Shown: piece by piece, positions 5,274-42,109 of the stretch
How positions within the stretch are numbered: position 1 is the first letter of the stretch
Layout of the letters: each line of letters starts with the position of its first letter
Notes under the pieces: generated by a model
Seen by the model: only the letters and a program-made list of their open reading frames with translations
What the model was told of the DNA's origin: nothing
Databases searched by the model: none
Made by a program: the position numbers and the translations under genes
Origin: Candidatus Woesearchaeota archaeon
Lineage (GTDB): Archaea; Nanobdellota; Nanobdellia; SCGC-AAA011-G17; JAGVZY01
Direction of reading: 5' to 3'
NCBI GenBank assembly: GCA_018302225.1
Contig: JAGVZY010000010.1
Coordinates: forward strand, 6,645-70,644
DNA length: 64,000 nucleotides

Positions 5274-5747
5274 ATGCATACAAAATTAGTCGTTATAAGG
5301 ATAAGAGGAGATCTTGGTGTAAGAAAACCAGTAGTAGATACTATGAAAATGCTAAGATTGTATAACAAAAACTATGCAGTAATTCTAGATTCAACACCTA
5401 GTATTGTTAACATGCTTATCAATGCAAAAGATTACATTACTTGGGGAGAATTAGACAAAGAAGCTCTTCATTTATTATTAGAAAAAAGAGCAAGACTTCC
5501 AGGCAACAAGCAAGTTACAGATTCTTATGTTAAAGAAAAATTAAAAATTTCTCTTAAAGAATTTTCAGACAAAATATTTGAAAACAAAGCAAAATTATCA
5601 GACTTACCTGGAATGAGATTATTTTTCAGACTAAAACCACCAGTAAAAGGTTTTGAAAAAGGCGGAATCAAAAAACCATTTGCTCAAGGCGGAGTTTTAG
5701 GTTATAGAACAAATAAAGTTAATGATTTACTAAAAAGAATGTTATAA
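5274..5747 (+). CDS. rpl30: 50S ribosomal protein L30 (uL30)
   Basis: VVIRIRGDLGVRKPVVDTMKMLRL is typical of archaeal L30. Starts 1 nt after the S5 stop. Confidence 0.93.
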   Translation: MHTKLVVIRIRGDLGVRKPVVDTMKMLRLYNKNYAVILDSTPSIVNMLINAKDYITWGELDKEALHLLLEKRARLPGNKQVTDSYVKEKLKISLKEFSDKIFENKAKLSDLPGMRLFFRLKPPVKGFEKGGIKKPFAQGGVLGYRTNKVNDLLKRML

Positions 5748-5757
5748 AGGTAAAAAA

Positions 5758-6198
5758 ATGACAATCAACAAAAGAAAGAAAAACGTAAGACAACGTGGAA
5801 GAAACTCTCATGGTTGGGGCTCAAAAAAGAAGCATAGAGGAGCAGGCCATAGAGGTGGAAGAGGAATGGCTGGAACTGGAAAAAGAGCAGACCATAAAAA
5901 ACAAAGTATCATAGTCGAAGTGGGATTAAATAATTATTTTGGAAAGCACGGTTTTAGAAGAAGAGGCGGAATTAAAAAACCTGAAGTTATTAATTTAGCA
6001 CAAATACAAAATCACCTTGAAAAATGGACCAAAGAAGATAAAATAAAAGATAATACTCTTAATTTAACAGAACTAGGTTATGGAAAATTGCTATCAAAGG
6101 GAGAACTAAAAACAAAACTTAAAATAGTAGTAAAAGAAACTTCAAACAGCGCATTAGAAAAAATAAAAAAGATAGGTGGAGAAGTTGTCGCTTCTTGA
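5758..6198 (+). CDS. rpl15: 50S ribosomal protein L15 (uL15)
   Basis: RGRNSHGWGSKKKHRGAGHRGGRGMAGTGKR glycine/arginine-rich N-terminus. Confidence 0.93.
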   Translation: MTINKRKKNVRQRGRNSHGWGSKKKHRGAGHRGGRGMAGTGKRADHKKQSIIVEVGLNNYFGKHGFRRRGGIKKPEVINLAQIQNHLEKWTKEDKIKDNTLNLTELGYGKLLSKGELKTKLKIVVKETSNSALEKIKKIGGEVVAS

Positions 6199-7642
6199 AA
6201 TAGTAAACAAAAATTTACCAGAAATCAAAGGTCCTGCACAGAAAAGACTTCCGTTTAATGAGAAACTTAAATGGACTCTAATAGTTCTTGTTGCATTCTT
6301 TATTTTATCAGTACTTCCACTTTACGGAATGGGAAAAAACAATCTTGAACATTTCGAGATGTTATCCCTTTTACTTGGTGCAAGTTTTGGTAGTGTTCTT
6401 TCATTAGGTATTGGACCTATTGTTACAGGTTCTATTGTCTTACAATTATTAAAAGGTGCAGGAATATTAAAATTAGATACTCACACACCCGAAGGAAGAC
6501 AAAAATATGAAGGTTTACAAAAATTATTATCATTATTCTTTATAGTCTTTGAAGCATTAATCTACATATTAATGGGCGGACTTGCACCAGCTTCAACTTT
6601 GAGTATAGGCCAATATAGATTTTATCAATTCTTATTAGTATTACAATTAATAATTGGTGGTATAGTTGTACTTTATCTAGATCAAATCATTAGTAAGTGG
6701 GGATTCGGAAGTGGTATCTCATTATTTATTGCAGCAAATGTTTCTGCACAAATATTTATAGGAGCATTCTCACCTTTTGCAGTTGGAGCAACAGGAGCGA
6801 CATTTGGTTCTATATTTAGTTCAAGTGGTTTAGCACCAACAGGAAAAGTTTGGGTCTTAATAGGCTCTTTGATAAATCCAAACTCAAAAGAAGCAATCTT
6901 AGCATTATCAGCGATTGTCGCAACAATTATAGTATTCTTAATGTCTGTATATGCCCAGGCAATGAAAGTTGAAATTCCTTTATCATTCGGAAGAGTACGT
7001 GGTCATGGTGTAAGATGGCCCCTAAGATTTATGTACACTTCAAACATCCCAGTTATACTTACTGCAGCATTAATGGCAAATGTTCAATTAATGGCAAACT
7101 TGCTTCAAAAATCTCTAACTGCAAGCACAGGATTTTTAGTTTTCTTATCTAAACATGTCTTAGGACAATTCTCAGGAAGCACACCACAATCAGGATTGGT
7201 TTATTGGTTAAGTGCTCCAGATATATTAAGAGCAATAATTCAACAAGGTGGAATTACTGGAAATATGATTTTACAAGTTATAATATTTACATTATTTATG
7301 ATGATAGGTGCAGTAGTTTTCTCATTATTCTGGGTTCAAACATCTGGAATGGATGCACAATCACAAGCATCAAACATTCTTTCATCAGGTTTACAAATTC
7401 CTGGATTTAGAAGAGATGAAAGAGTTGTAGAACATTTACTTTCAAGATATATTCTGCCTTTAACAATTATGGGTGCATTGACTGTAGGATTTTTAGCATC
7501 AGCCGCAGATTTAATGGGTGCATTAAGTAGAGGTACAGGTATTTTACTTACAGTTATGATTATTTACAATTTATATGAATCCATTGCAAAAGAACATATG
7601 ATGGATATGTATCCAGCATTAAGAAAAATGATGGGTAAGTAA
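6176..7642 (+). CDS. secY: Preprotein translocase subunit SecY
   Basis: 488 aa and polytopic. Motifs LPFNEKLKWTL, GIGPIVTGSIVLQLL, GSGISLFI. GTG start overlapping the L15 end. Canonical position after L15. Confidence 0.95.
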   Translation: MEKLSLLEIVNKNLPEIKGPAQKRLPFNEKLKWTLIVLVAFFILSVLPLYGMGKNNLEHFEMLSLLLGASFGSVLSLGIGPIVTGSIVLQLLKGAGILKLDTHTPEGRQKYEGLQKLLSLFFIVFEALIYILMGGLAPASTLSIGQYRFYQFLLVLQLIIGGIVVLYLDQIISKWGFGSGISLFIAANVSAQIFIGAFSPFAVGATGATFGSIFSSSGLAPTGKVWVLIGSLINPNSKEAILALSAIVATIIVFLMSVYAQAMKVEIPLSFGRVRGHGVRWPLRFMYTSNIPVILTAALMANVQLMANLLQKSLTASTGFLVFLSKHVLGQFSGSTPQSGLVYWLSAPDILRAIIQQGGITGNMILQVIIFTLFMMIGAVVFSLFWVQTSGMDAQSQASNILSSGLQIPGFRRDERVVEHLLSRYILPLTIMGALTVGFLASAADLMGALSRGTGILLTVMIIYNLYESIAKEHMMDMYPALRKMMGK

Positions 7643-12126: not shown

Positions 12127-12250
12127 CGGGCCTGGCAGGATTTGAACCTGCGACCTACTGCTTACTTCCTCCCATTTATTTGGGATGATAAACCTTTTCT
12201 AAAGGTTTATTTAGAAGGCAGTTGCGCTATCCAGGCTGCGCTACAGGCCC
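12127..12250 (-). tRNA. tRNA-Arg (UCU) with 49-nt intron at the canonical 37/38 position
   Basis: Acceptor GGGCCTG/CAGGCCC, D arm GCGC-AGCCTGGATA-GCGC, anticodon stem ACTGC...GCAGT, T arm GCAGG-TTCAAAT-CCTGC. Intron about 12163-12211. The anticodon region CTTC pairs with intron GGAAG (BHB-like). Confidence 0.85.
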
Positions 12251-31219: not shown

Positions 31220-31293
31220 AGCCCTGTAGTCTAGCCGGCCAAGGATGCGAGGCTCTGGACCTTGCGACTCAGGTTCAAATCCTGACGGGGCTA
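31220..31293 (+). tRNA. tRNA-Gln (CUG)
   Basis: Acceptor AGCCCTG/CGGGGCT (A1-U72, as in archaeal tRNA-Gln), anticodon arm CGAGG-CTCTGGA-CCTTG, T arm TCAGG-TTCAAAT-CCTGA. Confidence 0.85.
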
Positions 31294-31366
31294 TCCGTGT
31301 TGACATGACAATCGAGTGTGATCTGAATGCTTAGAATTCTGATAGCAAAATTGCCCCACATTTTGA
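31281..31366. repeat. 86-bp direct repeat, copy 1 (last 13 nt of tRNA-Gln plus 73 nt downstream)
   Basis: Matches 32988-33073 with 2 mismatches (read by eye). Confidence 0.9.
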
Positions 31367-31440
31367 ACGTGTGCGAAGATTCCATTTTAATGGCTAAACA
31401 TTACCTTTACTGAAAAAAGATGCGACACGTTAGCTGTGTT
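31351..31440 (+). ncRNA. Hairpin element S, copy 1 (plus-strand orientation; outer stem degenerate)
   Basis: ttgccccacattttgaacgtgtgcgaagattc...aaaaaagatgcgacacgtt resembles the reverse complement of 37409-37504 and 39521-39615. The inner stem aacgtgt/acacgtt is perfect. RNA versus MITE is unresolved. Confidence 0.45.
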
Positions 31441-31502
31441 AAAAAAATAAGGGGAAGATAATTTGCAGAAAGATTTAAATAAACTCAAATGGACTACAAT
31501 TT

Positions 31503-32042
31503 ATGGAAAAAAGATTTTCTATGGGCACTATAGGTATCTTACACCTTATTGTTTATTCTCTTCTTCTTATCATAATTACAGGCCTTATAATTAACTTAAT
31601 AATAAATAAAAAAATATTCGGAGCAATAATATTAATAAGTTTTAATTTTATTTTATTTCTACCTGCAGTTATTCTCCTTTTAACAAATAATAAAATTATA
31701 ATCCAAGAAGACAAAATAATATTTCCAAGACAAGCGAGGTATGATGGAAAATATGGATTTATAGGAGATTTAAATATTTTTGCTTTTATAAAAAAGAAAC
31801 CTATAATCTCCATTCAGGATATTACATTTCTAAGATATAATTATAATTACTTACCTGTAGTTATGTGTTCCGCAAAAGACCCCTTAAGAAATTTATTAAC
31901 TATAAATTCTAAAGTTTTAGGTAAAAAAAGTTTTACACTTATTCGATTTAATAAAACTAAAATTATAGAGCTCATAAAAAATTTAAAAAAAATGAATCCC
32001 TCAATTAAACTATCAAACGAATGTTCTAATTTGATTAATTGA
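31503..32042 (+). CDS. Hypothetical membrane protein (2 TM plus soluble domain)
   Basis: 179-aa ORF with two N-terminal hydrophobic spans. It is the only gene of the first cassette. Confidence 0.5.
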   Translation: MEKRFSMGTIGILHLIVYSLLLIIITGLIINLIINKKIFGAIILISFNFILFLPAVILLLTNNKIIIQEDKIIFPRQARYDGKYGFIGDLNIFAFIKKKPIISIQDITFLRYNYNYLPVVMCSAKDPLRNLLTINSKVLGKKSFTLIRFNKTKIIELIKNLKKMNPSIKLSNECSNLIN

Positions 32043-32115
32043 TAAAAAACCGTTCCTCCGATGTCACGCATCCAATGGTCTTTCTGACGAACTAACCTAA
32101 AAAAAAGAAAACAAA

Positions 32116-32216
32116 TCACTTAGTAAATATCTTAACTATTACTTGTTCAACTTCTTTGATTTTAGATTCTTTAAGAGAACCAGATTTATAAAAAATAATG
32201 GACTTATCTGCTGTAA
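32116..32216 (-). pseudogene. 3'-terminal fragment of a mazF/pemK-like toxin gene
   Basis: The 101 bp match mazF 34071-34171 with about 4 mismatches. Homology continues into the downstream junction (32084-32115 vs 34040-34070). No 5' part is present. Confidence 0.8.
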
Positions 32217-32225
32217 CTAAACTAA

Positions 32226-32627
32226 TTAAATAACTCTTATTGCTTCTTCAGGCGTTAAAATCTTAATATTCTCATACTCTTTCAATTTCAAAAGATGTTT
32301 ATCCTGACTAATTATGAAATCAACTTGTCCATAGACTGCAGCCCAAATAAATTTATCATCTTCAGGATCTTCCTTAACTATATTGGCACATATAGGGACA
32401 TCAATCATGATTGAATTTTCTAAAATAAGATTCTTCCATTCCTCAATTAGCTCTTTGTCCATAGAAATCTTAAAAGTTTTAAGAGTTTTTACTAATTCTT
32501 CTATAATCTCTTCAGAACTAATTAATTGAAATTTTCCTTCTTTCCATTTATTTATAATTTGAGAACAAAAATTGCCTTCCCAAAATATTCCAGAAATAAA
32601 AACATTTGTGTCTAAAACGACTCTCAT
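32226..32627 (-). CDS. vapC: PIN-domain toxin (VapC-like)
   Basis: MRVVLDTNVFISGIFW... with the acidic residues of the PIN fold (D5, E..E, D near ISQDKHLL). 4-nt overlap with the upstream antitoxin. Confidence 0.85.
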   Translation of the reverse strand: MRVVLDTNVFISGIFWEGNFCSQIINKWKEGKFQLISSEEIIEELVKTLKTFKISMDKELIEEWKNLILENSIMIDVPICANIVKEDPEDDKFIWAAVYGQVDFIISQDKHLLKLKEYENIKILTPEEAIRVI

Positions 32628-32896
32628 TTTTTTCTAGCTTCTTTTATAGCTTCTGTTACATCTACTTGTTTTAAATTCTTAAGTTTTGCAAAATCTCTAG
32701 TTTTTTTAAGCAATTTATCTATTCCATTAAAATTAGGCATTTCTAATTTCTTTAAAACAATAGTATTATCTTCGCCAATAATAACAAACTTCTCTCCTTC
32801 ATGTATTCTAAGCTTATCTCTTAGACTTTGAGGTATAACTACTTGTCCTCTTGAACTCATACTTGTTATTTCTAAATTTTCCATTTTGACCTCCAA
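32624..32896 (-). CDS. vapB: AbrB/SpoVT-family antitoxin (VapB-like)
   Basis: SSRGQVVIPQSLRDKLRIHEGEKFVIIGEDNTIVLKKL swapped-hairpin motif. Confidence 0.8.
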   Translation of the reverse strand: MEVKMENLEITSMSSRGQVVIPQSLRDKLRIHEGEKFVIIGEDNTIVLKKLEMPNFNGIDKLLKKTRDFAKLKNLKQVDVTEAIKEARKK

Positions 32897-32929
32897 TAAA
32901 TTTATACTATCAGTAAGATTATCTTATTT

Positions 32930-32987
32930 ATAAAGCTTTCTGTAATTTTACTAACAGTCCCTCTCAAGTCATGTTTCCTATAGATAA
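32930..32987. repeat. Junction module R3 (contains the BRE/TATA of vapB), copy 1
   Basis: ataaagctttctgtaattttactaacagtccctctcaagtcatgtttcctatagataa resembles 36570-36628 and, more loosely, 39363-39400. Confidence 0.8.
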
Positions 32988-33073
32988 CCTGACGGGGCTA
33001 TCCGTGTTGACATGACAATCGAGTGTGATCTGAATGCTTAGAATTCTGATAGCCAAATTGCCCCATATTTTGA
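32988..33073. repeat. 86-bp direct repeat, copy 2 (tRNA-Gln 3'-end duplicate; attR-like)
   Basis: cctgacggggcta... matches 31281-31366 except at two positions. Confidence 0.9.
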
Positions 33074-33080
33074 GATAACA

Positions 33081-33947
33081 TTAATCTTCCAATCTTATCC
33101 ACTTTTTTTCTTCAATCTTCTTTATAAGTTTAGAATACAAAGATCTATCAATCTTTTTTATTTGTTCTTGAATTTCCTGTTCTAAAGGAATACCGTACGC
33201 CTTACTTCTATTTAAACTCCAATTATAAACGATTGCAGCCATAGCATCAGTTGTTCTATCCGTCAATTGAGGAAATAGTTTATAAAAATTGGTCCTAATT
33301 TCTAAAGAAGAATACTCGGGATGAGCAACGGCTATTGCTAACCAAAACTCACTTTGAGTATTAGTCATAACTTTTATAAAATCTTTCCAAATAGGATTTT
33401 TTTTGAGTAAGTCTGTTTGTTGTTGATAACCGCACCAATAAAGACTGCGATTAGAAACTATATCTCCAACTAACCAAGGTTCATCAATTAATTCCACATG
33501 ATTTTGCGAATAATCATATCTTAATCCATCTAAATAATTCAAACATTGTCTTAATCCTTCTTTTCTTACTTCTCTATCTAATGCAGGATAAACGAAACCT
33601 AAAACATTAAACACTGGAACAATAGTATCTTGATTTGGTCCACCAGCCATAGATTCTCCAAATGCCCTATTAGAAGAGATATCTCTTATTCTTTCTATAT
33701 AGGATCTTAAATTCTTAACCGCCCTTAAGGGATTTTCAAAAAGTAAAGTTTGAAACTCTTGGGCGATAGAATTAGCCTTAGAATATTGTTCTCCTAAAAT
33801 TGAAACCATTTCTGAAATAAACTTTTGATCAAAGCTAAAATTATCAATTACTCCATTCTTTTTAAGACTGATTGAAGGGATCCGTTTTACTTTTGGTTCA
33901 GAAAGCTTCTTTTCCAATTCTTCCTTAAAATTTATTAGTATAACCAT
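33081..33947 (-). CDS. Hypothetical protein (288 aa), cassette cargo
   Basis: Long ORF preceded by conserved promoter module B. No recognisable family or catalytic motif. Confidence 0.55.
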   Translation of the reverse strand: MVILINFKEELEKKLSEPKVKRIPSISLKKNGVIDNFSFDQKFISEMVSILGEQYSKANSIAQEFQTLLFENPLRAVKNLRSYIERIRDISSNRAFGESMAGGPNQDTIVPVFNVLGFVYPALDREVRKEGLRQCLNYLDGLRYDYSQNHVELIDEPWLVGDIVSNRSLYWCGYQQQTDLLKKNPIWKDFIKVMTNTQSEFWLAIAVAHPEYSSLEIRTNFYKLFPQLTDRTTDAMAAIVYNWSLNRSKAYGIPLEQEIQEQIKKIDRSLYSKLIKKIEEKKWIRLED

Positions 33948-33968
33948 TGTTTAAAAGAACTAATTAAG

Positions 33969-34054
33969 ACTTATAAAACTAATCTCAAAATCGTCTCATT
34001 CTTCTCTCCACAATATATAAACAGAACTCCGAGGTATCTCTGACAAACCAACCC
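33969..34054. repeat. Junction module B, copy 1 (TATA 'cttataaaactaatct' ... 'aactccgaggtatctctgacaaaccaaccc')
   Basis: Both ends recur at 38157-38218 and 40381-40458. The middle is variable. Confidence 0.8.
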
Positions 34055-34070
34055 AAAAAAAGAAAACAAA

Positions 34071-34403
34071 TTACTTAGTAAACATCTTAACTATTACTTG
34101 TTCAACTTCTTTTATTTTAGATTCTTTAAGAGAACCAGATTTATAAAGAATAATGGACTTATCTGCTGTAAATAACCTATTAGGTCTAATTGAACTAGTC
34201 AAAGGCAAACTTCCCTTTTTAAAATCTTTATTGTTTAGAATCAAAAAATATTTATCCACTCTAGCTTCGCTAGTTATTTGACAGAGAATGATATCATCCC
34301 CTTCTAATTCAGCAACTACTAAAGCAGGTCTCTTTTTTGAATTACTCAAATCTGAAAATGGAAAAGGTAATACTACTACATCCCCTTTTACAAATTCTTC
34401 CAT
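34071..34403 (-). CDS. mazF: MazF/PemK-family toxin
   Basis: GDVVVLPFPFSDLSNSKKRPALVV...CQITS is the PemK signature. Confidence 0.85.
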   Translation of the reverse strand: MEEFVKGDVVVLPFPFSDLSNSKKRPALVVAELEGDDIILCQITSEARVDKYFLILNNKDFKKGSLPLTSSIRPNRLFTADKSIILYKSGSLKESKIKEVEQVIVKMFTK

Positions 34404-34645
34404 GCTTTTTCATCCTCTTTGCTATTCCAATCTTTAGCTAAAACCATTTCGCTAAACTTAAGAATATCTCTAAAATCATCTTTCATAGATTGTTCAACTT
34501 TTTGTGATTTTTCTAATAAAATCTTATTATCTAATTGTATAACTATTAACTCATCTCCTTGTTCTATTCCTAGAGTTTCTCGCATAGTTTGAGGAAGAGC
34601 AATTTGTCCTTTTTCAGATACTTTAATTGTTTTCATCATATTCAA
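34388..34645 (-). CDS. mazE: AbrB/MazE-family antitoxin
   Basis: VSEKGQIALPQTMRETLGIEQGDELIVIQLDNKILLEK. Overlaps the mazF start. Confidence 0.8.
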   Translation of the reverse strand: MNMMKTIKVSEKGQIALPQTMRETLGIEQGDELIVIQLDNKILLEKSQKVEQSMKDDFRDILKFSEMVLAKDWNSKEDEKAWKNL

Positions 34646-34665
34646 ATGTAAGAATATTCTTACTT

Positions 34666-34750
34666 ATAAAGCTTTCTATTTTTTAGATTATATTTCGATG
34701 GTCTCTCCTACATCACACAACAGGCTCACCCCCTGACAAACCACCCTAAA
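34666..34750. repeat. Junction module A, copy 1
   Basis: ataaagctttctattttttagattatatttcgatggtctctcctacatcacacaacaggctcaccccctgacaaaccaccc resembles 35912-35998. The partial copy is at 41433-41476. Confidence 0.85.
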
Positions 34751-34758
34751 AAACAGGT

Positions 34759-35280
34759 TTAATATGTATCTATAATCTCTTTAACCTTATTCACGAAGTT
34801 TATTGCTTTTCTCTGTAACCCCTCTGCTTCTTTTATATCAAAAAAGATTTTAGTTGAATAATTTGCCTCTTTTCTCTTTGCTTTATTCTTAATATAATCT
34901 AAAACTTCTTCCTTTTCTATAGCCACCTTACTAACTATTGCTATATCTTCTCTATCTAGTTTAATTTTGTAAAAATCTTTAATTAATATTAATAAAGTAG
35001 CTAAATGATTTTTTGTTGAATAGCCTTTTAACGCACACAATGCTAAAGACGCCTGATAAATAGAATAATAAGAAACAACAATTGCCCAATCATTAAATTC
35101 CTTTAATCCTAGAGTGGCTTGAAGAAACTTAAGATTATGATCTGCTTTTTCTATGTGACCTTTAACTAAAGCAGGAGTTTCAGTTTCTTTAGTTATTTTC
35201 TTGGATTTAAGATACTGATTGAAATCTCTATTTCTTCTTTCTTCACTTTCCAGCCATAGTTCCCAAAGCTCTTTAGTCAT
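34759..35280 (-). CDS. HEPN-domain protein (toxin partner of MNT)
   Basis: All-helical 173 aa with KGYSTKNH (Rx4-6H-like position). Overlaps the upstream nucleotidyltransferase gene. Confidence 0.7.
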   Translation of the reverse strand: MTKELWELWLESEERRNRDFNQYLKSKKITKETETPALVKGHIEKADHNLKFLQATLGLKEFNDWAIVVSYYSIYQASLALCALKGYSTKNHLATLLILIKDFYKIKLDREDIAIVSKVAIEKEEVLDYIKNKAKRKEANYSTKIFFDIKEAEGLQRKAINFVNKVKEIIDTY

Positions 35281-35878
35281 TTAATACCTCTTTGTAAAAC
35301 TGATCATTTCCCGATAATGGAAATCCTGTCTTTATTGCGTGAGTTATAACTTTATCTTCTTCTCTTAATATCTGTTCTTTAAAATAGTCAAAATTAATTA
35401 TAAAAGTTTGTATTTTAACTCCTGTTATTGCTTCTATATCTTTTTTAAGTTTTTGATCTTCAGATTCTTTTTTATTATAAACTAAAAGCAAGTCTATATC
35501 ACTTTCTTTTGAAAAAGTTCCTTTTGCAGTCGAACCGAAAAGGAGGGTGATTAAAGGTTTAATCTTAAGTTTATCTAATAAGTCGGTTATTGCCCTTCTT
35601 CTATCTAAAGGAAGTTCATTAAACTTTTTATAATCAAAATAAGCTAGAATAGCATAAAGTTGTTTATTTTTAGGATTTAACTTATAGAAAGTATTTCCTA
35701 TCTTTTTAGTACAAATTATAAGGTTGTTTGTTTGAAGATTCTTCAGATGTTTAAGAGTAGTATTCTGAGTTAGTTTTGTTTCTCTTAAAATCTCACTAAA
35801 ATAAAGCTCTTTAGTATAATTTCTATAAAAACAGGCTAATATCTTTTCTTTTCCGTTTCCGAATAATGTATTGTTCAT
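35273..35878 (-). CDS. Minimal nucleotidyltransferase (MNT) with N-terminal wHTH
   Basis: LLFGSTAKGTFSKESDIDLLLV (GSx10-ishDxD). N-terminal HTH-like segment about 90 aa. Confidence 0.8.
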   Translation of the reverse strand: MNNTLFGNGKEKILACFYRNYTKELYFSEILRETKLTQNTTLKHLKNLQTNNLIICTKKIGNTFYKLNPKNKQLYAILAYFDYKKFNELPLDRRRAITDLLDKLKIKPLITLLFGSTAKGTFSKESDIDLLLVYNKKESEDQKLKKDIEAITGVKIQTFIINFDYFKEQILREEDKVITHAIKTGFPLSGNDQFYKEVLND

Positions 35879-35911
35879 TTTATGTATAGCTTAGTACATT
35901 TAATGTACTAT

Positions 35912-35998
35912 ATAAATCTTTCTATTTTTTAGAGTATATTTCGATGGTCCCTCCTACATCACATCATAGGCTCACCCCCTGACGAACCAACCCAAAAA
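35912..35998. repeat. Junction module A, copy 2
   Basis: ataaatctttctattttttagagtatatttcgatggtccctcctacatcacatcataggctcaccccctgacgaaccaaccc. Confidence 0.85.
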
Positions 35999-36040
35999 AA
36001 CACTTATTAGCCTTACCCTAATTAAATCGAGGACAAAAAT

Positions 36041-36307
36041 TTAATCCCTATAAATTAAATCGTGATGATCGTAATCTTCAAAAAAAATTGTCTGATTTTG
36101 ATGATCTACTTTAAAAACTAAAACAAAATGTCCTATGTGGACTCTATTCAAGCTTTTCATATCATAAGTTAAAAATTTATAACTATGATTAGGATTTTCT
36201 AAAATAGAATCAATCTTTTTTCTAACTTGAAAATAATGCGTATTATCTTTCTTTTTGAGCTTAGCTAACTTTTTTACAATCTCTTCACTATAGCAATCTT
36301 TGTACAT
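36041..36307 (-). CDS. relE: RelE/ParE-superfamily toxin
   Basis: 88 aa: KKLAKLKKKD...KKIDSILENPNHSYKFLTYDMKSLNRVHIGHFVLVFKVDH, the archaeal RelE pattern. Confidence 0.7.
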   Translation of the reverse strand: MYKDCYSEEIVKKLAKLKKKDNTHYFQVRKKIDSILENPNHSYKFLTYDMKSLNRVHIGHFVLVFKVDHQNQTIFFEDYDHHDLIYRD

Positions 36308-36534
36308 TAAGATACCTCTTTTTCTAATTCCTCACGAGAAAAATGCTTTCCTTTTATAATTTTAGCTAATTTGATTTTATATTCAGGCCTTAATTCAGGT
36401 TCTAAAGAAAGTTGTTCATATTCAGTTACGACTATGTTTATTGCCTGAGACTTATCTCTTAAACCAAATTTTGCTTTTACTATGTTTAACACCCTGTTAG
36501 TATTTTCGTCTATATTTATCACAGCTTGTACCAT
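36307..36534 (-). CDS. Antitoxin (DUF2683-like)
   Basis: MVQAVINIDENTNRVLNIVKAKFGLRDKSQAINIVV. Its stop abuts the relE start. Confidence 0.6.
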   Translation of the reverse strand: MVQAVINIDENTNRVLNIVKAKFGLRDKSQAINIVVTEYEQLSLEPELRPEYKIKLAKIIKGKHFSREELEKEVS

Positions 36535-36569
36535 ATTACATCACGTATATAAGTATATATGTCTTATAT

Positions 36570-36702
36570 ATAAATCTTTCTGTAATTTTTGCCACAGTCC
36601 CTCTCAAGTCATGTTTCCCATAGATAACCTGACAGGGCTATAAACACTCGCGTGACATTCTAGGGACCATTTGTCCACAGCCCCTTAAATTCTAAATGTG
36701 AA
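36570..36702. repeat. Composite junction R3 + tRNA-3'-like core + R2, copy A (interrupted at 36702 by the IS)
   Basis: Resembles 39363-39474. The core cctgacagggcta is a degenerate tRNA-Gln 3' end. Confidence 0.85.
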
Positions 36703-37381
36703 CTACTCAGCACTAAAGTGCTGAGCGTCATTAGTTAAATTGAGCTAATCTTAATTGTTCTTTTCCATATTTATAATACTGATAATCAACTGCTTTCCAA
36801 TGTTTCTTTTGGCTATGTTCAACATAGAATCTTACGGAATCTTTTGTAACTGCATCAACAGTTCTATAAAAATATCCCGCACTCCAGAATTTTTTACCCC
36901 ATAACTTATTTTTAAGTAAATCTTTATGATATTTTCTTATCATATAAGATGAGAAACCTTTTAGCTCTCTGACTATTTTTTCTATACTATGCTTCTTCCA
37001 ATTACTAATAAAAATATGTCCATGGTCTGGTCCAAAGTCTATAGCAGGAATTACAAGACCAAGCTTTTCTGATTTTTCAAGGAGATATTTCTTTGTTAAT
37101 TCAAAAACCTTCTTATTCGCAAATACGTCTCTCCTGTATGCAGGAGTAATCTGCAAGTGTAGATTACTTTCTCCTACAGTTGAGCCCGTTTTAACTAATT
37201 CGTTTTTCATTTTTTTCTCCCGACGCAAAGTTTTTATAGAAAGACAGCTTACACTAATTGGTTTCTTTCAAGTAGCGTAGCGTCAACGCTACGTTACATT
37301 TTAGTATGTTTTAGAAGAAATACTTTACGCAATTCATCTCAGACCTAAAGGTATGAGTGTTCTTGTGCTAAAAGGTATAAA
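36703..37381 (-). mobile_element. IS200/IS605-family insertion sequence (tnpA only), about 679 bp
   Basis: Boundaries inferred from the uninterrupted paralogous site 39461-39485 (aaatatgaa|agccgaaat). No target duplication. Subterminal hairpins ctcagcac-taaa-gtgctgag (36706-36725) and tagcgtagcg-tcaa-cgctacgtta (37285-37308). Confidence 0.8.
36731..37228 (-). CDS. tnpA: IS200/IS605 Y1 (HUH) transposase TnpA
   Basis: HUH motif DHGHIFI and catalytic-Tyr region WSAGYFYRTVDAVT. The start may be ATG 37210. Confidence 0.9.
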   Translation of the reverse strand: MRREKKMKNELVKTGSTVGESNLHLQITPAYRRDVFANKKVFELTKKYLLEKSEKLGLVIPAIDFGPDHGHIFISNWKKHSIEKIVRELKGFSSYMIRKYHKDLLKNKLWGKKFWSAGYFYRTVDAVTKDSVRFYVEHSQKKHWKAVDYQYYKYGKEQLRLAQFN

Positions 37382-37504
37382 AGCCGAAATAAAAAATACC
37401 TCAAAAAGTTCCGCCACAAGGCCAACGTGTCGCATCTTTTTTTAGTGCAAGTAAATTATTACCTAAATTTTAGAATCTACGCACACATTAAAAACGTGGC
37501 GGAA
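37382..37504 (-). ncRNA. Linker plus hairpin element S, copy 2 (S = 37409-37504)
   Basis: On the minus strand: ttccgccac...gtggcggaa is a perfect 9-bp outer stem, and the inner stem aatgtgt/acacgtt has one G-U. About 50 nt downstream of the 193-aa ORF stop. Confidence 0.5.
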
Positions 37505-37554
37505 TAAATTTTAAGATAAAAGAAGAATTTATTGAATCTAGATCTTCAAGAAAA

Positions 37555-38136
37555 TTAATAGTCCTGCCACAACCAAGGTCTCTCTTTTCTTACCTCCATA
37601 AATAATTCAAAGCTAAGTTTGTCTTTCTTATCAGGAAGATAATTAGGAAATTTATTTACATCAAAATTCGGTTTATTAATCAAAAAGGTAAAAAATTCTG
37701 TTAAGTCTTCATCAACTAAAACATTTAACCCCCGTTCATAAGATCTTTTGGCTAATTTTTCAACACAATCCCACATATGAAATCCAGCGATTCTAATTAC
37801 TTTAACTATACCTAATTGATTAATTATATAATCTTGATTAGGATAGGAATAAGTTCCATCAGATTTTTTTGTAGTATGAGTTTTAAAATCCATCCCTACG
37901 TTTAGAATCTTATCCGATTCATGAAGTTCAATCATATCTGAAAGGGTAGTATCATTAAAAAGGGCATAATTTATATTAAAACCTTTTTGCCTATATCTCA
38001 AATCTATACATTGGTTTAAAAGAAGTTTATATTTTTGTTTAAACAAATCAGGTTCTTTTACATTCATCCAGCGCTTACACCCCAATTCAAAGTTTATTAT
38101 CTCTGGAATAGGATATAAAAATACAAACTCTTGCAT
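37555..38136 (-). CDS. Hypothetical protein (193 aa), weakly isochorismatase/cysteine-hydrolase-like
   Basis: IRIAGFHMWDCVEKLAKRSYERGLNVLVDEDL resembles the G...CV...A...G..V.V..D core. Other catalytic residues were not identified. Confidence 0.4.
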   Translation of the reverse strand: MQEFVFLYPIPEIINFELGCKRWMNVKEPDLFKQKYKLLLNQCIDLRYRQKGFNINYALFNDTTLSDMIELHESDKILNVGMDFKTHTTKKSDGTYSYPNQDYIINQLGIVKVIRIAGFHMWDCVEKLAKRSYERGLNVLVDEDLTEFFTFLINKPNFDVNKFPNYLPDKKDKLSFELFMEVRKERPWLWQDY

Positions 38137-38156
38137 ATCTAATTATTAATATTTAA

Positions 38157-38218
38157 ACTTATAAAACTAATCTAGATATATAAATAACACTCCAAGGTAT
38201 CTCTGACCAACTAAAACC
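38157..38218. repeat. Junction module B, copy 2
   Basis: acttataaaactaatct...acactccaaggtatctctgaccaactaaaacc. Confidence 0.8.
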
Positions 38219-38265
38219 GAAAGATATATAAATAACCAATATCTTGGTTTATATAACCCAATAAA

Positions 38266-38895
38266 GTGGTTAATATGATAACTCAAAAACAATTCAAAAT
38301 ATTTGGGATATTCGCAAGTAAACCTTTTGTAGAACATACCCGAAACGAAATAAAAAAAGAACTAAAAGAAAAGTCTAATAATGCTCTAGCTTTAACTATC
38401 AACCTATTAAAAAAAGAAGAAGTCCTAATTGAAAAAAAAGTTGGAAAATCTGGTCTTCTAACCCTTAATTTAAACAAAGATTTAACCTTTTCTTATCTCG
38501 AATTATGGAGTTTATCCAAACTTCCCCATTTAGCTAAACTTTCTCTGGAAACCTTAAAAAAAGAAATTACTGAAAACACCCCATTTTATTCCTTAGTTAT
38601 CTTTGGTTCTTATGCTATAAATCAACAAAAGGATAACTCGGATTTAGATATTGCAATTTTTATTGAAAAGGAAAACAATAAAAAGCAAATAGAAGCTTTA
38701 GTGAATAGTGCAAAATTAAAAAGTACAATTGAAATAGATGCACATATTATCCCAAAATCAGAGATGATTGAAATGCTTACAAATAAAGAAGAAAACTTAG
38801 GAAAACAAATAGCACGAAAACATTTAGCTTATTATAATAATAGGATATTTTATGAAATAATCAAAGAAGGGAGGGATCATGGATTTAGGATATAA
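38266..38895 (+). CDS. Minimal nucleotidyltransferase (MNT) with N-terminal wHTH
   Basis: VIFGSYAINQQKDNSDLDIAIFI. The start may be ATG 38275. Confidence 0.8.
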   Translation: MVNMITQKQFKIFGIFASKPFVEHTRNEIKKELKEKSNNALALTINLLKKEEVLIEKKVGKSGLLTLNLNKDLTFSYLELWSLSKLPHLAKLSLETLKKEITENTPFYSLVIFGSYAINQQKDNSDLDIAIFIEKENNKKQIEALVNSAKLKSTIEIDAHIIPKSEMIEMLTNKEENLGKQIARKHLAYYNNRIFYEIIKEGRDHGFRI

Positions 38896-39352
38896 AATTT
38901 ATCTTGCACGAGCTCAGAACGAATTAAACCTTTCAATGATAGTTCAAAAAATAAGTGATAATAAGAAACTACAAATTGAAGTGTTTGAAATGAAAGAAGA
39001 TACTTATTATAGCGCAGCTATTTCTCATGCTTACTATTCAATATTTTATGCTGCAAAAGCTTATCTTTTATTAAAGAATATAAAGACTCTGGCGCCTGAA
39101 GAACATAGAAAAACCTTTGAAGAATTCTCAAAGCTCGTAAACAAAGGTATAATTGATGTAGAATTACTCAGAATCTATCAAAGTATGCTTATCAAAGCAG
39201 ATACGCTTCTAAATATATTTGAACTAGAAAAAGGAAAAAGAGGAAAGTTCACTTATAGAAGAATACCTCAAGCAAATCAAGAACCTGCGCAAGAAAGTAT
39301 AAAAAATGCACAAATATTTTTTAAGAATATATTTAGATTATGTGAGAAATAA
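38879..39352 (+). CDS. HEPN-domain protein
   Basis: All-helical, AISHAYYSIFYAAKAYLL...APEEHRKT. Overlaps the MNT stop. Confidence 0.7.
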   Translation: MDLGYKIYLARAQNELNLSMIVQKISDNKKLQIEVFEMKEDTYYSAAISHAYYSIFYAAKAYLLLKNIKTLAPEEHRKTFEEFSKLVNKGIIDVELLRIYQSMLIKADTLLNIFELEKGKRGKFTYRRIPQANQEPAQESIKNAQIFFKNIFRLCEK

Positions 39353-39362
39353 TAGCCTTATT

Positions 39363-39474
39363 TTGCCACAGTCTCCCAAGTCATATTTCTTCTAAATAAG
39401 CTGACGGGACTATAAACACTCGCGTGACATTCGAGGAACCATTTCCTCACAACTCCTTAAATTCTAAATATGAA
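39363..39474. repeat. Composite junction R3' + tRNA-3'-like core + R2, copy B (uninterrupted)
   Basis: gccacagtctcccaagtcatatttcttctaaataagctgacgggactataaacactcgcgtgacattcgagg...ttaaattctaaatatgaa. Confidence 0.85.
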
Positions 39475-39615
39475 AGCCGAAATAAAAAAATACCTCAAAA
39501 AGTGGATTTTGAGCTGAGAATTCCGCCACAAGGCCAACGTGTCGCATCTTTTTTTAGTGCAAGTAAATTATTACCTAAATTTTAGAATCTACGCACACAT
39601 TCAAAACGTGGCAGG
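39475..39615 (-). ncRNA. Linker plus hairpin element S, copy 3 (S = 39521-39615)
   Basis: Near-identical to copy 2. The single outer-stem change gives U-G on the minus strand and C-A on the plus strand. Confidence 0.5.
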
Positions 39616-39667
39616 AGAAAGTTGAAAATAAAAGAGAAATTAAATGTAGATATTAAGCTTATAAATT

Positions 39668-40360
39668 TTATTTAGTTAATTTAATTTCTGCAAGTTGTCT
39701 ATTAAGAATTACATAAAGAGGAATATAACCATTTCCAAAGTTTTCATGAATATAACCTAAAACCTTCATTTGTGGCAACTTCTCTCTTGCCGAGATTTTA
39801 TTAATCTCATCTTCTATTAATGGATCATTGTTCTTAATTCTTTGAGACAGTTCTTCAAAGCTCAATTTGCTTCCAGTTCTATAAAAATCTATTTCTTCTA
39901 AAGATCTATCTATCCTACTTAATCTTTGAGTATATAATTGAACTTGCTTTTCAGATTTTAATGCCCCAACAGGATAATCTCCTTTTTGTAATAAACTTCT
40001 CGGCGTTCCTTTCCATTCAGATCCTAAGGTAACAATACCATAAGAAGAACTTAAAATTTTAGCTATATTATAATTAATATATCTCGAATTTAAATTAATT
40101 TTATCTAACTTAGACCAAATCGCAATAATTTCTAAAGATTCAAAGTTAAAATCATTAATTCTTTCCACTTCGTCCGCAAAATCCCCTAAGTTAGCACAAA
40201 TATAATCCTGAGCTTCAGAATTATTCTTTTCCTTTAAATTTTTAGCAATATCAATTATCTTTATTTGATAGTTATTCAAAAGAGTTATAACTGGATGTTC
40301 TTCAAAGCCTCTTAAATTCAAGGCATTATTCACTTCTGAATCTGTAAGGGGTAAGTTCAT
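39668..40360 (-). CDS. Hypothetical protein (230 aa), cassette cargo
   Basis: Long ORF behind promoter module B. No family recognised. Confidence 0.55.
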   Translation of the reverse strand: MNLPLTDSEVNNALNLRGFEEHPVITLLNNYQIKIIDIAKNLKEKNNSEAQDYICANLGDFADEVERINDFNFESLEIIAIWSKLDKINLNSRYINYNIAKILSSSYGIVTLGSEWKGTPRSLLQKGDYPVGALKSEKQVQLYTQRLSRIDRSLEEIDFYRTGSKLSFEELSQRIKNNDPLIEDEINKISAREKLPQMKVLGYIHENFGNGYIPLYVILNRQLAEIKLTK

Positions 40361-40380
40361 AATTTAAAAAATGATTCAAG

Positions 40381-40458
40381 CTTTATAAAACTAATCTAAA
40401 AACCCTATCCGTGAGATTTGAATAGAACTCCGAGGTATCTCTAACAACCAACCCAACC
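40381..40458. repeat. Junction module B, copy 3 (core CTAAC)
   Basis: ctttataaaactaatct...agaactccgaggtatctctaacaaccaacccaacc. Confidence 0.8.
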
Positions 40459-40520
40459 GAAACCTTTAAATATCTACACATACATACACGTATTAACACA
40501 TAATACACAAGGCGATAAAT

Positions 40521-40745
40521 ATGGTAAATGTAACATTAGCTATTCCCGTAGAATTAAAACAAAAGATGGATTTATTCAATGAAATTAATTGGAGTGCTGT
40601 TGCAAGGCAAGCATTTGACGAAAAAATAAACGATTTAGAATTCATCAAAAAGTTTAAAGCAAAAAGTATAGTTACAGAAAGAGATACTTTAGAATGGGGT
40701 AAAAAGTTAAATAAAAGTTTGGCAAAAAGAAGGTACTCCGTCTAA
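40521..40745 (+). CDS. Antitoxin-like small protein (RHH/VapB-like)
   Basis: MVNVTLAIPVELKQKMD...NWSAVARQAFDEKI. Stops 1 nt before the PIN gene. Confidence 0.6.
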   Translation: MVNVTLAIPVELKQKMDLFNEINWSAVARQAFDEKINDLEFIKKFKAKSIVTERDTLEWGKKLNKSLAKRRYSV

Positions 40746-40746
40746 A

Positions 40747-41136
40747 ATGGACTTAATCGTAGATGCTAATATTCTTTTTTCTATTTTAATTAAACAAGGA
40801 AAGACCGAAGAACTTATTTTTAAAAATGAATTTCATCTTTTTACTCCAGAATATATTTTTGAAGAATTTGAAAAACATAAATCAGAAATTATAGAAAAAA
40901 CACAAAGAAATTCTGAAGATTTTAATAATTTGACGAATATATTGAAAAAGAGAATAAATACTATTAGTAATGAAGAAACTGAAAGATTTATTATGGCCGC
41001 TAAAAAAATAAGCCCAGATCCAGATGATATTGATTATTTTGCCTTGGCATTGAAAATTAAATGCCCCATTTGGAGTCAAGATAAAAAGCTTAAATTGCAA
41101 AAAAAGATTATAAAATATACTCTACAGAAGAAATAG
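40747..41136 (+). CDS. PIN-domain protein (VapC-like toxin)
   Basis: MDLIVDANILFSILIK...TPEYIFEEF...DPDDIDYFALAL...SQDKKL. Confidence 0.75.
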   Translation: MDLIVDANILFSILIKQGKTEELIFKNEFHLFTPEYIFEEFEKHKSEIIEKTQRNSEDFNNLTNILKKRINTISNEETERFIMAAKKISPDPDDIDYFALALKIKCPIWSQDKKLKLQKKIIKYTLQKK

Positions 41137-41170
41137 TGAAGTTATTTGAATAAAAAAAGAAGTAAATAAT

Positions 41171-41383
41171 ATGATTCAAAATAAAAGAAAATTAAAAAAG
41201 ACCTTATGGGTATTTACCTTATTTTATTTAATAGGATTAATAATTGGTTTGGGTCTAATCTTTTCAATGTCCAACGCCCCAACTACCAAAAATATAATTT
41301 TTATTTTAGTTCTAGACTTTGTTATTATGGGCACAATTACCTATCTCTACATTTGGAAAGAGCTCCCAACAATTGGAATTTAG
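41171..41383 (+). CDS. Small two-TM membrane protein (70 aa)
   Basis: Hydrophobic spans LWVFTLFYLIGLIIGLGLIF and IIFILVLDFVIMGTITYLYIW. Confidence 0.45.
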   Translation: MIQNKRKLKKTLWVFTLFYLIGLIIGLGLIFSMSNAPTTKNIIFILVLDFVIMGTITYLYIWKELPTIGI

Positions 41384-41432
41384 TTAATTCAGATATCGAA
41401 AAAAACCTTCCCTCGAATGTCACGCATCCGGG

Positions 41433-41476
41433 GGTCTCTCCTACATCACACAACAGGCTCACTGTCTGACGAAACG
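41433..41476. repeat. Junction module A, partial copy 3 (right end of the cassette region)
   Basis: ggtctctcctacatcacacaacaggctcactgtctgacgaaacg. It is preceded by tcgaatgtcacgcatcc, a motif also at 32058-32074 and, inverted, in both R2 copies. Confidence 0.75.
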
Positions 41477-41496
41477 AATTTTATAAAAAGAAAAAA

Positions 41497-41658
41497 TTAA
41501 ATCTGTCCAGTTTCAGTATATTTTTTAATCAATCTTTCAACTACCACAGCAGGAGCAAATCCTTTCTGTGCGCATACTTTAACAAAACCATTATAAATTG
41601 CTCTATCTACATTATAATCCAATTGCATTTTTTTCTGTGCTTTAAGACTTGCCGCCAT
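41497..41658 (-). CDS. Unlisted small ORF (53 aa), ribbon-helix-helix-like
   Basis: My own translation: MAASLKAQKKMQLDYNVDRAIYNGFVKVCAQKGFAPAVVVERLIKKYTETGQI. Below the ORF-track length cutoff. The beta-strand/helix/helix pattern is typical of CopG/RHH. Confidence 0.45.
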   Translation of the reverse strand: MAASLKAQKKMQLDYNVDRAIYNGFVKVCAQKGFAPAVVVERLIKKYTETGQI

Positions 41659-41836
41659 ATTTTACCACCAAAAATTAAATTATTAATCAAGTTTATAAGT
41701 ATTAGCTTTTAAACTATCGAACCAGCTTCTTTAATAATAGTAGTTTTCCAACAGCAGAAACTCTTCTAATGAAAACTATTTTAATCATAAATTATTAAAA
41801 GATAAGTTTATTAAAAACCTTTTCTTTTGAATTGAA

Positions 41837-42109
41837 ATGACTAAAACAACTTGGTATATTTACATTCTAGAATGTCTTGATGGTTCTTATTACACTGGTG
41901 TCACAAACAACCTAGAAAAAAGAATGAAAACCCATCAATCTGGAAAAGGAAGTAAATATGTAAAAAGAAAAGGATTTAACCATTTAATCACCTCCTCCAA
42001 ATGCAAAGACAAATCAGATGCATGCAAAAAAGAATATTTAATTAAACAACTTCCAAAACATGAAAAATTAAAATTTTTAAAAAATCTAAGTCTTAATCCC
42101 ATTATTTGA
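41837..42109 (+). CDS. GIY-YIG nuclease superfamily protein
   Basis: WYIYILECLDGSYYTGVTNNLEKRMKTHQSGKGSKY. Confidence 0.85.
   Translation: MTKTTWYIYILECLDGSYYTGVTNNLEKRMKTHQSGKGSKYVKRKGFNHLITSSKCKDKSDACKKEYLIKQLPKHEKLKFLKNLSLNPII

Follow-up and report, generated by a model that had tools for sequence, protein, structure and literature searches.

A tRNA-Gln-anchored array of small toxin-antitoxin units with a shared CTGAC core in a groundwater DPANN archaeon

A 64,000-nucleotide (nt) stretch of contig JAGVZY010000010.1 (hereafter the window), from a Candidatus Woesearchaeota archaeon, contains an array of ten short units that begins at a tRNA-Gln gene and carries a pentamer core, CTGAC, at its boundaries. 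Most units encode toxin-antitoxin (TA) pairs, and the rest encode proteins without an assigned family. Population variants and displaced copies of the tRNA tail show that DNA is recombined in this population at CCTGAC, where the T-stem of tRNA-Gln meets its acceptor strand, and that serial insertions have occurred there. We infer with moderate confidence that the other junctions were made by the same kind of recombination, with the enzyme supplied in trans, and we also infer mobility at the seven junctions with a AACCAACC-type sequence to the right of the pentamer. The explanation that we favor, and to which we give about even weight, is an accretion array of recombinase-less cassettes, assembled by site-specific recombination at the tRNA T-stem/acceptor boundary with an enzyme acting in trans.

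DPANN archaea are host-dependent and have very small genomes, and little is known of how they acquire and shuffle accessory and defence genes. The present locus is a DPANN example of a tRNA gene as a live entry point for very small units without a recombinase, in a tidy array with the same core at every boundary.

The array and its boundaries

The window consists of core chromosomal DNA from an AT-rich archaeon (~29% GC), with genes for ribosomal proteins, SecY, MCM, TBP, RFC, topoisomerase VI and aminoacyl-tRNA synthetases. The same DNA is present in many metagenome assemblies of Rifle (Colorado) groundwater, including the 86-kb contig ERZ4903072 k141_20218, and the nearest genomes in the GTDB set are metagenome-assembled genomes (MAGs) of Nanoarchaeota/Woesearchaeota, with protein identity of only ~50%. 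The array host is a Rifle groundwater Nanoarchaeota (DPANN) chromosome. Since the array was recovered in the same order and at 99.6-100% identity in >30 contigs from independent assemblies, it is not an assembly artefact.

A preliminary description, made from the sequence alone, had reported ten units at tRNA-Gln with CTGAC at each boundary and CTAAC at one of them. This layout was confirmed by the pentamer positions and by ARAGORN and Rfam (Table 1). The units that follow tRNA-Gln measure 802, 905, 1051, 693, 1246, 650, 1574, 1198, 1040 and 1025 nt, the longest being unit 7, which includes an IS200-type insertion sequence (IS). Genes point in the minus direction in seven units and in the plus direction in three. 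As had also been described, each unit has its own promoter, with a box resembling the transcription factor B recognition element (BRE) and TATA box 25-35 nt upstream of its first gene start.

Each of the eleven intergenic regions (2847 nt in total) contains one junction pentamer. Ten junction CTGAC were found on the plus strand and none on the minus strand (no GTCAG), CTAAC replacing CTGAC at J9. At the rate seen in the rest of the window, ~0.45 CTGAC would be expected by chance in these 2847 nt, giving a Poisson probability of 6e-11 for ten or more; the value is ~1e-4 if only ~5 independent module classes are counted. The array and its pentamer are real and non-random.

The sequences on either side of the pentamer are modular. 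To the right, two classes were observed, in agreement with the preliminary description. At J0 and J2 the pentamer is followed by GGGGCTA and repeat R in exact form, within an 86-nt repeat of 98% identity, and at J6 and J8 by the degenerate forms AGGGCTA and GGGACTA, each leading into R'. At the other seven, AACCAACC-type junctions, the pentamer is followed by RAACYAACCY and then by an A-run or by AACCGAAA and a TATA box. To the left lie the tRNA body at J0, R3 at J2, J6 and J8, A at J4, J5 and J10, and B at J3, J7 and J9. This part of the earlier module assignment stood for A, B and R3 and required revision at J1, where the left side is a 7-nt stub, GGTCTTT, which is like the first bases of A and the last bases of B and is preceded by Ux. 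B, A and R3 are different sequences, all of which end at the pentamer. The 19-nt motif Ux (GGTYCCTMGAATGTCACGC) lies to the left of J1 and J10 in direct orientation, and R' contains it in inverted form at J6 and J8. Its relation to the start of R' held up in a non-circular cross-class test (22-27 bits against a shuffle maximum of 16-21). Two further candidates were rejected: a common origin of the left modules, A and R3 scoring only ~12 bits against Ux, inside the null range, and a T-arm-mimic hairpin ending in CTGA in every left module, which was found at 6/11 junctions against 36% of random positions, a difference that was not significant.

Recombination at the tRNA-Gln boundary

The 13-nt tail of tRNA-Gln (CCTGACGGGGCTA, at 31281 in the tRNA) recurs at three junctions, always in direct orientation and with mismatches that rise with distance from the tRNA (Table 1). 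The spans between successive tails (J0-J2, J2-J6 and J6-J8) measure 1.7-3.6 kb. Extra copies were found for tRNA-Gln only, the window's other five tRNAs having none. Graded tail copies of this kind are the classical mark left when DNA integrates repeatedly at a tRNA gene, in which case older events would lie further away. The copy at J6, CAGGGCTA, gives an acceptor strand with Watson-Crick pairs throughout, a version shared with the tRNA-Gln of L041, a related Woesearchaeota MAG. The present tRNA-Gln acceptor, by contrast, contains a G-U pair, a pattern consistent with incoming DNA having replaced the end of the tRNA.

Population variants change sequence at this same boundary. In contigs L026, L062 and L063, from three samples and assemblies, the first cassette lies behind two non-tRNA left modules, A2 or A3; the match to the window sets in precisely at 31281 (CCTGAC) and extends over 1.4-4.1 kb with 99.9-100% identity. 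The contigs L026 and L062, each from its own sample, are distinguished by one single-nucleotide polymorphism in the flank and both read ...GAGTCCTCCCTAATCACGTCATGGGATCACCG/CCTGAC/GGGGCTATCCGTG..., and L063, from the third sample, reads ...TCATGTGTGTTGGAGACCC/CCTGAC/GGGGCTA.... Because these contigs derive from assemblies with k = 127-141, reads spanning the joins must exist. A2 resembles A; thus, an A-type left arm occurs with both right-hand classes, which links them. The recombination at a CTGAC-containing core that had been proposed from the sequence alone is therefore borne out at the tRNA-proximal junction, where the breakpoints fall at the pentamer.

Other variants also differ at the tRNA end. 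In L006, the tRNA is joined straight to the J2-type R, the 1707 bp from J0 to J2 (units 1 and 2) are missing, and the crossover lies within the first 65 nt from the core. The first gene after the tRNA, R and an S element also differs in L008, where its product has an HNH-like C-terminus; the HNH-like fragment measures 33 aa. Contig ends are frequent nearby, many other contigs breaking between 31281 and 31620, as expected from a branching assembly graph there. All polymorphism seen was at GGGGCTA-type sites. In all other contigs the array order was fixed. Two candidate variants elsewhere were set aside. An apparent deletion at J3 in L024 is a scaffold gap of 10 N. In L034 (ERZ4903125 k141_253007), a stretch with 100% identity to window 33811-34039 is fused to unrelated DNA that looks GC-richer; it comprises B together with the promoter and initial 46 codons of the 288-aa gene and stops exactly one base before CTGAC. 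L034 is probably a chimeric contig and was not used as evidence.

We propose that a site-specific recombinase, most likely a tyrosine recombinase, would exchange strands at CCTGAC and a few bases rightward; its gene would lie at another genomic site or on a helper element. Incoming DNA would enter at the tRNA and supply the replacement acceptor strand GGGGCTA, and new units would push older ones away from the tRNA. Junctions of the form A or B, CTGAC and RAACYAACCY would be the same kind of site with a different overlap-like right-hand sequence; were a matching overlap required, this would account for the absence of junctions in which the two right-hand classes are mixed. Circular-cassette joints would read, for example, ...GGTATCTCTGACGGGGCTA... 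or ...ATAGATAACCTGACAAACCAACCC.... Within units, genes would in addition have been exchanged through ordinary recombination that is not site-specific. For archaeal elements, both tandem integration and loss of the integrase gene are documented (PMC8371274).

A bolder form of this proposal appears rather unlikely. It would describe a DPANN cassette-capture platform, integron-like yet unrelated to integrons, with entry at the tRNA-Gln T-stem/acceptor boundary, ~1-kb promoter-bearing cassettes, a 5-6-bp core with modular arms, and a trans-acting recombinase that needs neither attC hairpins nor inverted sites. The undescribed mechanism mentioned in the preliminary description is possible. If the non-tRNA junctions prove to be recombination sites, the array would represent a second, independent route to integron-like arrays and point to an unknown recombinase; if not, it would provide a clear natural case of serial integration at a tRNA, with decay and gene replacement afterwards.

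Alternative explanations

Several results weigh against the accretion of cassettes by site-specific recombination. Polymorphism was seen at none of the AACCAACC-type junctions in >30 contigs, order being fixed away from the tRNA end. The left context of A2 and A3 spans only 19-68 nt, so that insertion between the tRNA and unit 1 is putative, and L006 could be an assembly collapse across the 65-nt exact repeat. No tyrosine or serine recombinase was found in the window, among open reading frames that were scanned or had precomputed tables, as the preliminary description had stated. Junctions folded no better than shuffled sequences (z between -1.2 and +1.2), and no inverted-repeat binding sites beyond chance were found around the core, where the best repeats in a span of +/-22 nt averaged 5.0 matches against 5.4 in random 49-mers. 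Unit 2 retains a mazF remnant with 92-95% DNA identity to the mazF of unit 4. This remnant is evidence that VapBC took the place of MazEF in a unit that already existed; genes have thus been exchanged within a conserved chassis without use of the pentamer.

Searches for relatives of the modules point in the same direction. In the GTDB species genomes, A, a relaxed A, a 24-mer of the tRNA-Gln tail and Ux gave 0 or only 5 chance bacterial matches. In IMG/VR, A, B, R3, S and R' gave 0 matches or one chance match (L049), and in a single metagenome scan of the JGI contig set the relaxed A matched only GC-rich bacterial coding sequence (L033). MazF homologues are widespread, at 75-84% identity, and the fetched contexts of such homologues (L050-L054 and L066-L069) contained no junction modules, motif matches in the L066 spacer being not significant. 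Mobility between genomes is thus not supported by these searches.

The main rival, which explains much of the data, is that the array is the decayed remains of three to four mobile elements, inserted in tandem into tRNA-Gln by a conventional integrase that has since been lost and later reshaped by local duplication, gene replacement and homologous recombination. Under this view, att sites would be confined to the four GGGGCTA-type junctions, and the seven A/B-CTGAC-AACCAACC junctions would be copied paralogous intergenic DNA. We regard this as a real possibility that falls short of probable. R3 was found only with R or R' (3/3; chance 1/120), so that the GGGGCTA-type joints look like attP-like joints between three tandem composite elements, as in ordinary tandem tRNA-targeted integrations, and not like random cassette neighbours. 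The decay of the tail copies with distance from the tRNA and the restriction of polymorphism to GGGGCTA-type sites also fit decayed integrations, as do the precedents for tandem integration and integrase loss cited above. Further, J1 and J3 share 148 nt, mazF remnant included, which suggests duplication and replacement, and promoters and left modules are common to unrelated genes. That all ten units are equivalent, independently mobile cassettes is not supported by these data.

Decayed integrations account less readily for the junctions outside the GGGGCTA class. The AACCAACC-type junctions also have CTGAC, in the same polarity and exactly once per intergenic region, and the meeting of the unrelated left modules B, A and R3 and of a second right-hand class at the same oriented pentamer is left unexplained. 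A-like modules are not tied to one right-hand class: A is paired with AACC in the window, and A2 and A3 are paired with GGGGCTA in L026, L062 and L063. The segments between tails are just 1.7-3.6 kb long, and scans of the unit proteins (Pfam on all; NCBIfam, PHROGs and PADLOC on those that Pfam left unassigned) detected no integrase fragment, intact or split.

An improbable alternative to the accretion array is that the modules and pentamer are expression or processing signals of accessory genes, such as regulatory sites, transcript ends or RNA-processing sites. The junctions do sit between a terminator-like run and a BRE/TATA box, and the order of the array is stable across samples. However, module polarity is fixed by the array and is independent of gene direction, which argues against a promoter or terminator role: at J4 and J5, A is found upstream of promoters on the minus strand, yet at J10 it follows a gene on the plus strand, and R3 likewise differs in its position relative to the gene between J2/J6 and J8, the right arm preceding a terminator run or a promoter. 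Copies of A, B, R3, R, R', S and Ux were absent from the rest of the 64 kb outside 31.2-41.5 kb, including all other intergenic regions; thus, the modules are neither generic promoter or terminator sequences nor dispersed sequences like miniature inverted-repeat transposable elements (MITEs). In addition, the tRNA itself contains the pentamer, the population variants switch sequence exactly there, and the junctions had neither an Rfam match nor a significant fold.

Movement of the units as single strands by an HUH (Y1) transposase, for example the IS200 enzyme of the array, inserting 3' of CTGAC, is very improbable. This Y1 transposase is the only DNA-strand-transfer enzyme in the array, and the units all follow the same pentamer on its 3' side, with a single polarity. 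Against this, the IS200 has its own two hairpin ends and sits in R' with ...TTTCGGCT, not CTGAC, as the neighbour on its own strand; a matching empty site exists at 39473/39474 in the paralogous R' copy of unit 9. The exact transposase protein was found in a single genomic context across all public contigs read, and the unit ends had no significant subterminal hairpins.

An integron-type array without integrase (a cluster of attC sites lacking integron-integrases, CALIN) is scarcely credible: although the ~1-kb units are rich in TA genes and archaeal integrons and CALINs exist, Nanoarchaeota included (PMC9668308), no pairs of attC boxes (R'' RYYYAAC and R' GTTRRRY, 50-150 nt apart) were present on the plus or minus strand of the array, folding of the junctions is no better than that of shuffled sequences, in line with the preliminary description, which had called them unlike attC in fold, the units have their own promoters and mixed gene directions, and the entry site is a tRNA, not an attI beside intI.

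Unit contents, resident elements and neighbouring genes

The coordinates of the array features are collected in Table 1. The gene content read earlier from the sequence was largely confirmed by Pfam and NCBIfam, with the exception of the presumed HEPN partner in unit 5 and of the RelE-like toxin in unit 6, as specified in the table. Across the array, tRNA was the only Rfam family matched.

Table 1. Coordinates of the array and its features in the window
Feature	Position	Strand	Remarks
tRNA-Gln(CTG)	31220..31293	+	ARAGORN, Rfam (55 bits)
Core CCTGAC	31281-31286	+	T-stem 3' strand of tRNA-Gln and first acceptor base; J0 CTGAC 31282
GGGGCTA	31287-31293	+	Acceptor 3' strand of tRNA-Gln
Unit 1	31287..32088	+	R 31287-31366; S 31350-31439; Ux 32050-32069; GGTCTTT stub; J1 CTGAC 32084
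179-aa membrane protein gene, unit 1	31503-32042	+	No family
Unit 2	32089..32993	+	Right arm GAACTAACCT; promoter; R3 32955-32988; J2 CTGAC 32989
mazF 3' remnant, unit 2	32115-32224		Last 33 codons, directly downstream of vapC
PIN_3 VapC, unit 2	32226-32627	-	Pfam/NCBIfam
MazE-like VapB, unit 2	32624-32896	-	Pfam/NCBIfam
tRNA-tail copy at J2	32988..33000	+	0 mismatches
Unit 3	32994..34044	+	Promoter; B 34025-34039; J3 CTGAC 34040
Second R copy, unit 3	32994-33073		98% identity over 86-nt repeat 32988-33073 vs 31281-31366
288-aa gene, unit 3	33081-33947	-	No family
Unit 4	34045..34737	+	Right arm AAACCAACCC and A-run; promoter; A 34700-34732; J4 CTGAC 34733
MazF (PemK), unit 4	34071-34403	-	Pfam/NCBIfam
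MazE, unit 4	34388-34645	-	Pfam/NCBIfam
Unit 5	34738..35983	+	Right arm AAACCACCCT; promoter; A 35946-35978; J5 CTGAC 35979
173-aa MNT partner, unit 5	34759-35280	-	No HEPN match
MNT, unit 5	35273-35878	-	Pfam/NCBIfam
Unit 6	35984..36633	+	Right arm GAACCAACCC; promoter; R3 36595-36628; J6 CTGAC 36629
YafQ/RelE-like toxin, unit 6	36041-36307	-	YafQ/RelE model scores below curated cut-offs
75-aa partner of RelE-like toxin, unit 6	36307-36534	-	
tRNA-tail copy at J6	36628..36640	+	1 mismatch
Unit 7	36634..38207	+	AGGGCTA and R'; inverted Ux 36650-36668; inverted S 37416-37505; promoter; B 38188-38202; J7 CTGAC 38203
IS200-type insertion in R' of unit 7	36703..37381	-	679 nt
IS200 subterminal hairpins	36706-36725, 37338-37357		
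Y1 transposase (Y1_Tnp) of IS200	36731-37228	-	
193-aa gene, unit 7	37555-38136	-	No family
Unit 8	38208..39405	+	Right arm CAACTAA and AACCGAAA/TATA promoter; R3' 39368-39400; J8 CTGAC 39401
MNT, unit 8	38266-38895	+	Pfam/NCBIfam
HEPN, unit 8	38879-39352	+	Pfam/NCBIfam
tRNA-tail copy at J8	39400..39412	+	2 mismatches
Unit 9	39406..40445	+	GGGACTA and intact R' 39406-39646; inverted Ux 39422-39440; inverted S 39528-39611; promoter; B 40426-40440; J9 CTAAC 40441
230-aa gene, unit 9	39668-40360	-	No family
Unit 10	40446..41470	+	Right arm AACCAACCC and AACCGAAA/TATA; Ux 41406-41425; A 41433-41465; J10 CTGAC 41466
Ribbon-helix-helix protein, unit 10	40521-40745	+	Pfam/NCBIfam
PIN_2, unit 10	40747-41136	+	Pfam/NCBIfam
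70-aa transmembrane protein, unit 10	41171-41383	+	

The four proteins without a family (179, 288, 193 and 230 aa) gave no recombinase or nuclease signal. The 288-aa protein has a confident all-alpha AlphaFold model (pLDDT 88.5, pTM 0.81) with no fold match in the PDB. Its family (P0002-P0038) has 17 invariant residues and occurs in Nanoarchaeia and in at least one bacterium of the candidate phyla radiation (Moranbacteria); homologues are ~48% identical, and the context on a fetched long contig (P0012, L035) is among housekeeping genes. For the 230-aa protein, 131 representatives at 23-36% identity were recovered by exhaustive HMMER search only, a word-indexed homology search finding none, and the family had no Pfam or PDB relative.

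Comparison of the array DNA with phages and plasmids returned only mazEF and one weak coding-region match (69%, 166 nt). In L052-L054 (ERZ27250163 and others), a mazEF pair at 4826-6333, with a MazF 79% identical to that of the array, lies directly downstream of a gene for a 275-aa tyrosine recombinase (Phage_int_SAM_4 and Phage_integrase) and several small genes; no junction modules common to these contigs and the array were found. The mazF-mazE overlap region (window 34062-34441) has 79% DNA identity to L066-L069, with unrelated flanks, and GC content in those contigs is ~40% against ~29% in the window. Such matches suggest that the mazEF pair may have spread horizontally, and recently, among DPANN lineages. 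The 266-aa gene neighbouring the array has relatives at 49-54% identity in four Nanoarchaeota/Woesearchaeota MAGs, and tRNA-Gln was found in the same arrangement beside them in 0/4.

The S element, of ~95 nt, occurs in both directions in units 1 (+), 7 (-) and 9 (-) and also in L008. Its ends are conserved, CCCCAC.TTTTGAA.GTGTGCG ... AAAAAAGATGCGACACGTTGGC, and are partly inverted repeats of each other, and its centre keeps a small hairpin through different sequences (CCATtttaATGG and CTAAAaTTTAG). A structured RNA was rejected (z -0.4 and -1.2, no Rfam match); S may be a MITE-like or invertible segment.

To the right of J10 (41497-42109) lie a gene for a 53-aa product, which looks like a ribbon-helix-helix protein from its sequence and had no family match, and a stand-alone gene for a 90-aa GIY-YIG nuclease. 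Between them, CTATCGAACCAGC (41714-41726) resembles a decayed CTGACGAACCAAC junction; given this likeness, the array may once have reached further right. Elsewhere in the window, Rfam detected a sixth tRNA of 124 nt (12127-12250, minus strand, 57.7 bits), which lies beside tRNA-Cys, is presumably intron-bearing and is absent from the ARAGORN calls.

Comparison with known systems

IS200/IS605 elements such as IS608 and ISDra2 insert 3' of TTAC-like targets in one polarity. The array resembles this family and its miniature derivatives in its fixed direction, in the position of each unit 3' of a conserved pentanucleotide and in the presence of a Y1 transposase. In contrast, its units lack subterminal hairpins, and the resident IS, which is carried as a passenger in R', has a different target. 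The array is not IS200-driven.

The modules moved by Xer recombination, namely the pdif modules of Acinetobacter plasmids and the arrays of integrative mobile elements exploiting Xer (IMEX) at dif, are mobilized by a host recombinase encoded elsewhere. These are likewise small, TA-rich modules with short sites that form arrays at one site. No 28-bp dif-type site (two 11-bp inverted arms with a 6-bp spacer) or lox-like site was found at the junctions, the array sites are all direct and not alternately inverted, and the target is a tRNA.

Like integron arrays and CALINs (PMC9668308), the array has ordered cassettes of ~1 kb that are enriched in TA genes, a short recurrent site at each boundary, similar site types within the genome, variants that suggest entry at one end, and no adjacent integrase. 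Unlike integrons, it has no attC sequence or structure, IntI or attI, and is anchored at a tRNA gene; moreover, integron cassettes are mostly promoterless and co-oriented, whereas each unit described here has a promoter of its own, and the units face in both directions. The array is not an integron.

Archaeal mobile elements are known to integrate site specifically and in tandem into tRNA genes, in what has been termed gene capture (PMC8371274). The array departs from this pattern in its small segments, with units of 0.65-1.6 kb that hold one gene or TA pair each, in the lack of any trace of an integrase, replication or structural gene, and in its short identity blocks, which measure only ~14 nt for joints of the tRNA type and ~15 nt for the rest; seven of its junctions share only the pentamer with the tRNA and differ in right-hand sequence. 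In common with archaeal tandem integration, insertion was in the 3' part of the tRNA gene with regeneration of the tRNA, direct tRNA-tail repeats border the inserts, tandem insertions are found at one tRNA with older copies decayed, and the integrase gene may be missing. Two hallmarks of tandem tRNA elements were therefore observed in the array: direct tail repeats with the intact tRNA at one end and, subject to the short flanks and the possible repeat collapse in L006, polymorphism of content with breakpoints at the att core.

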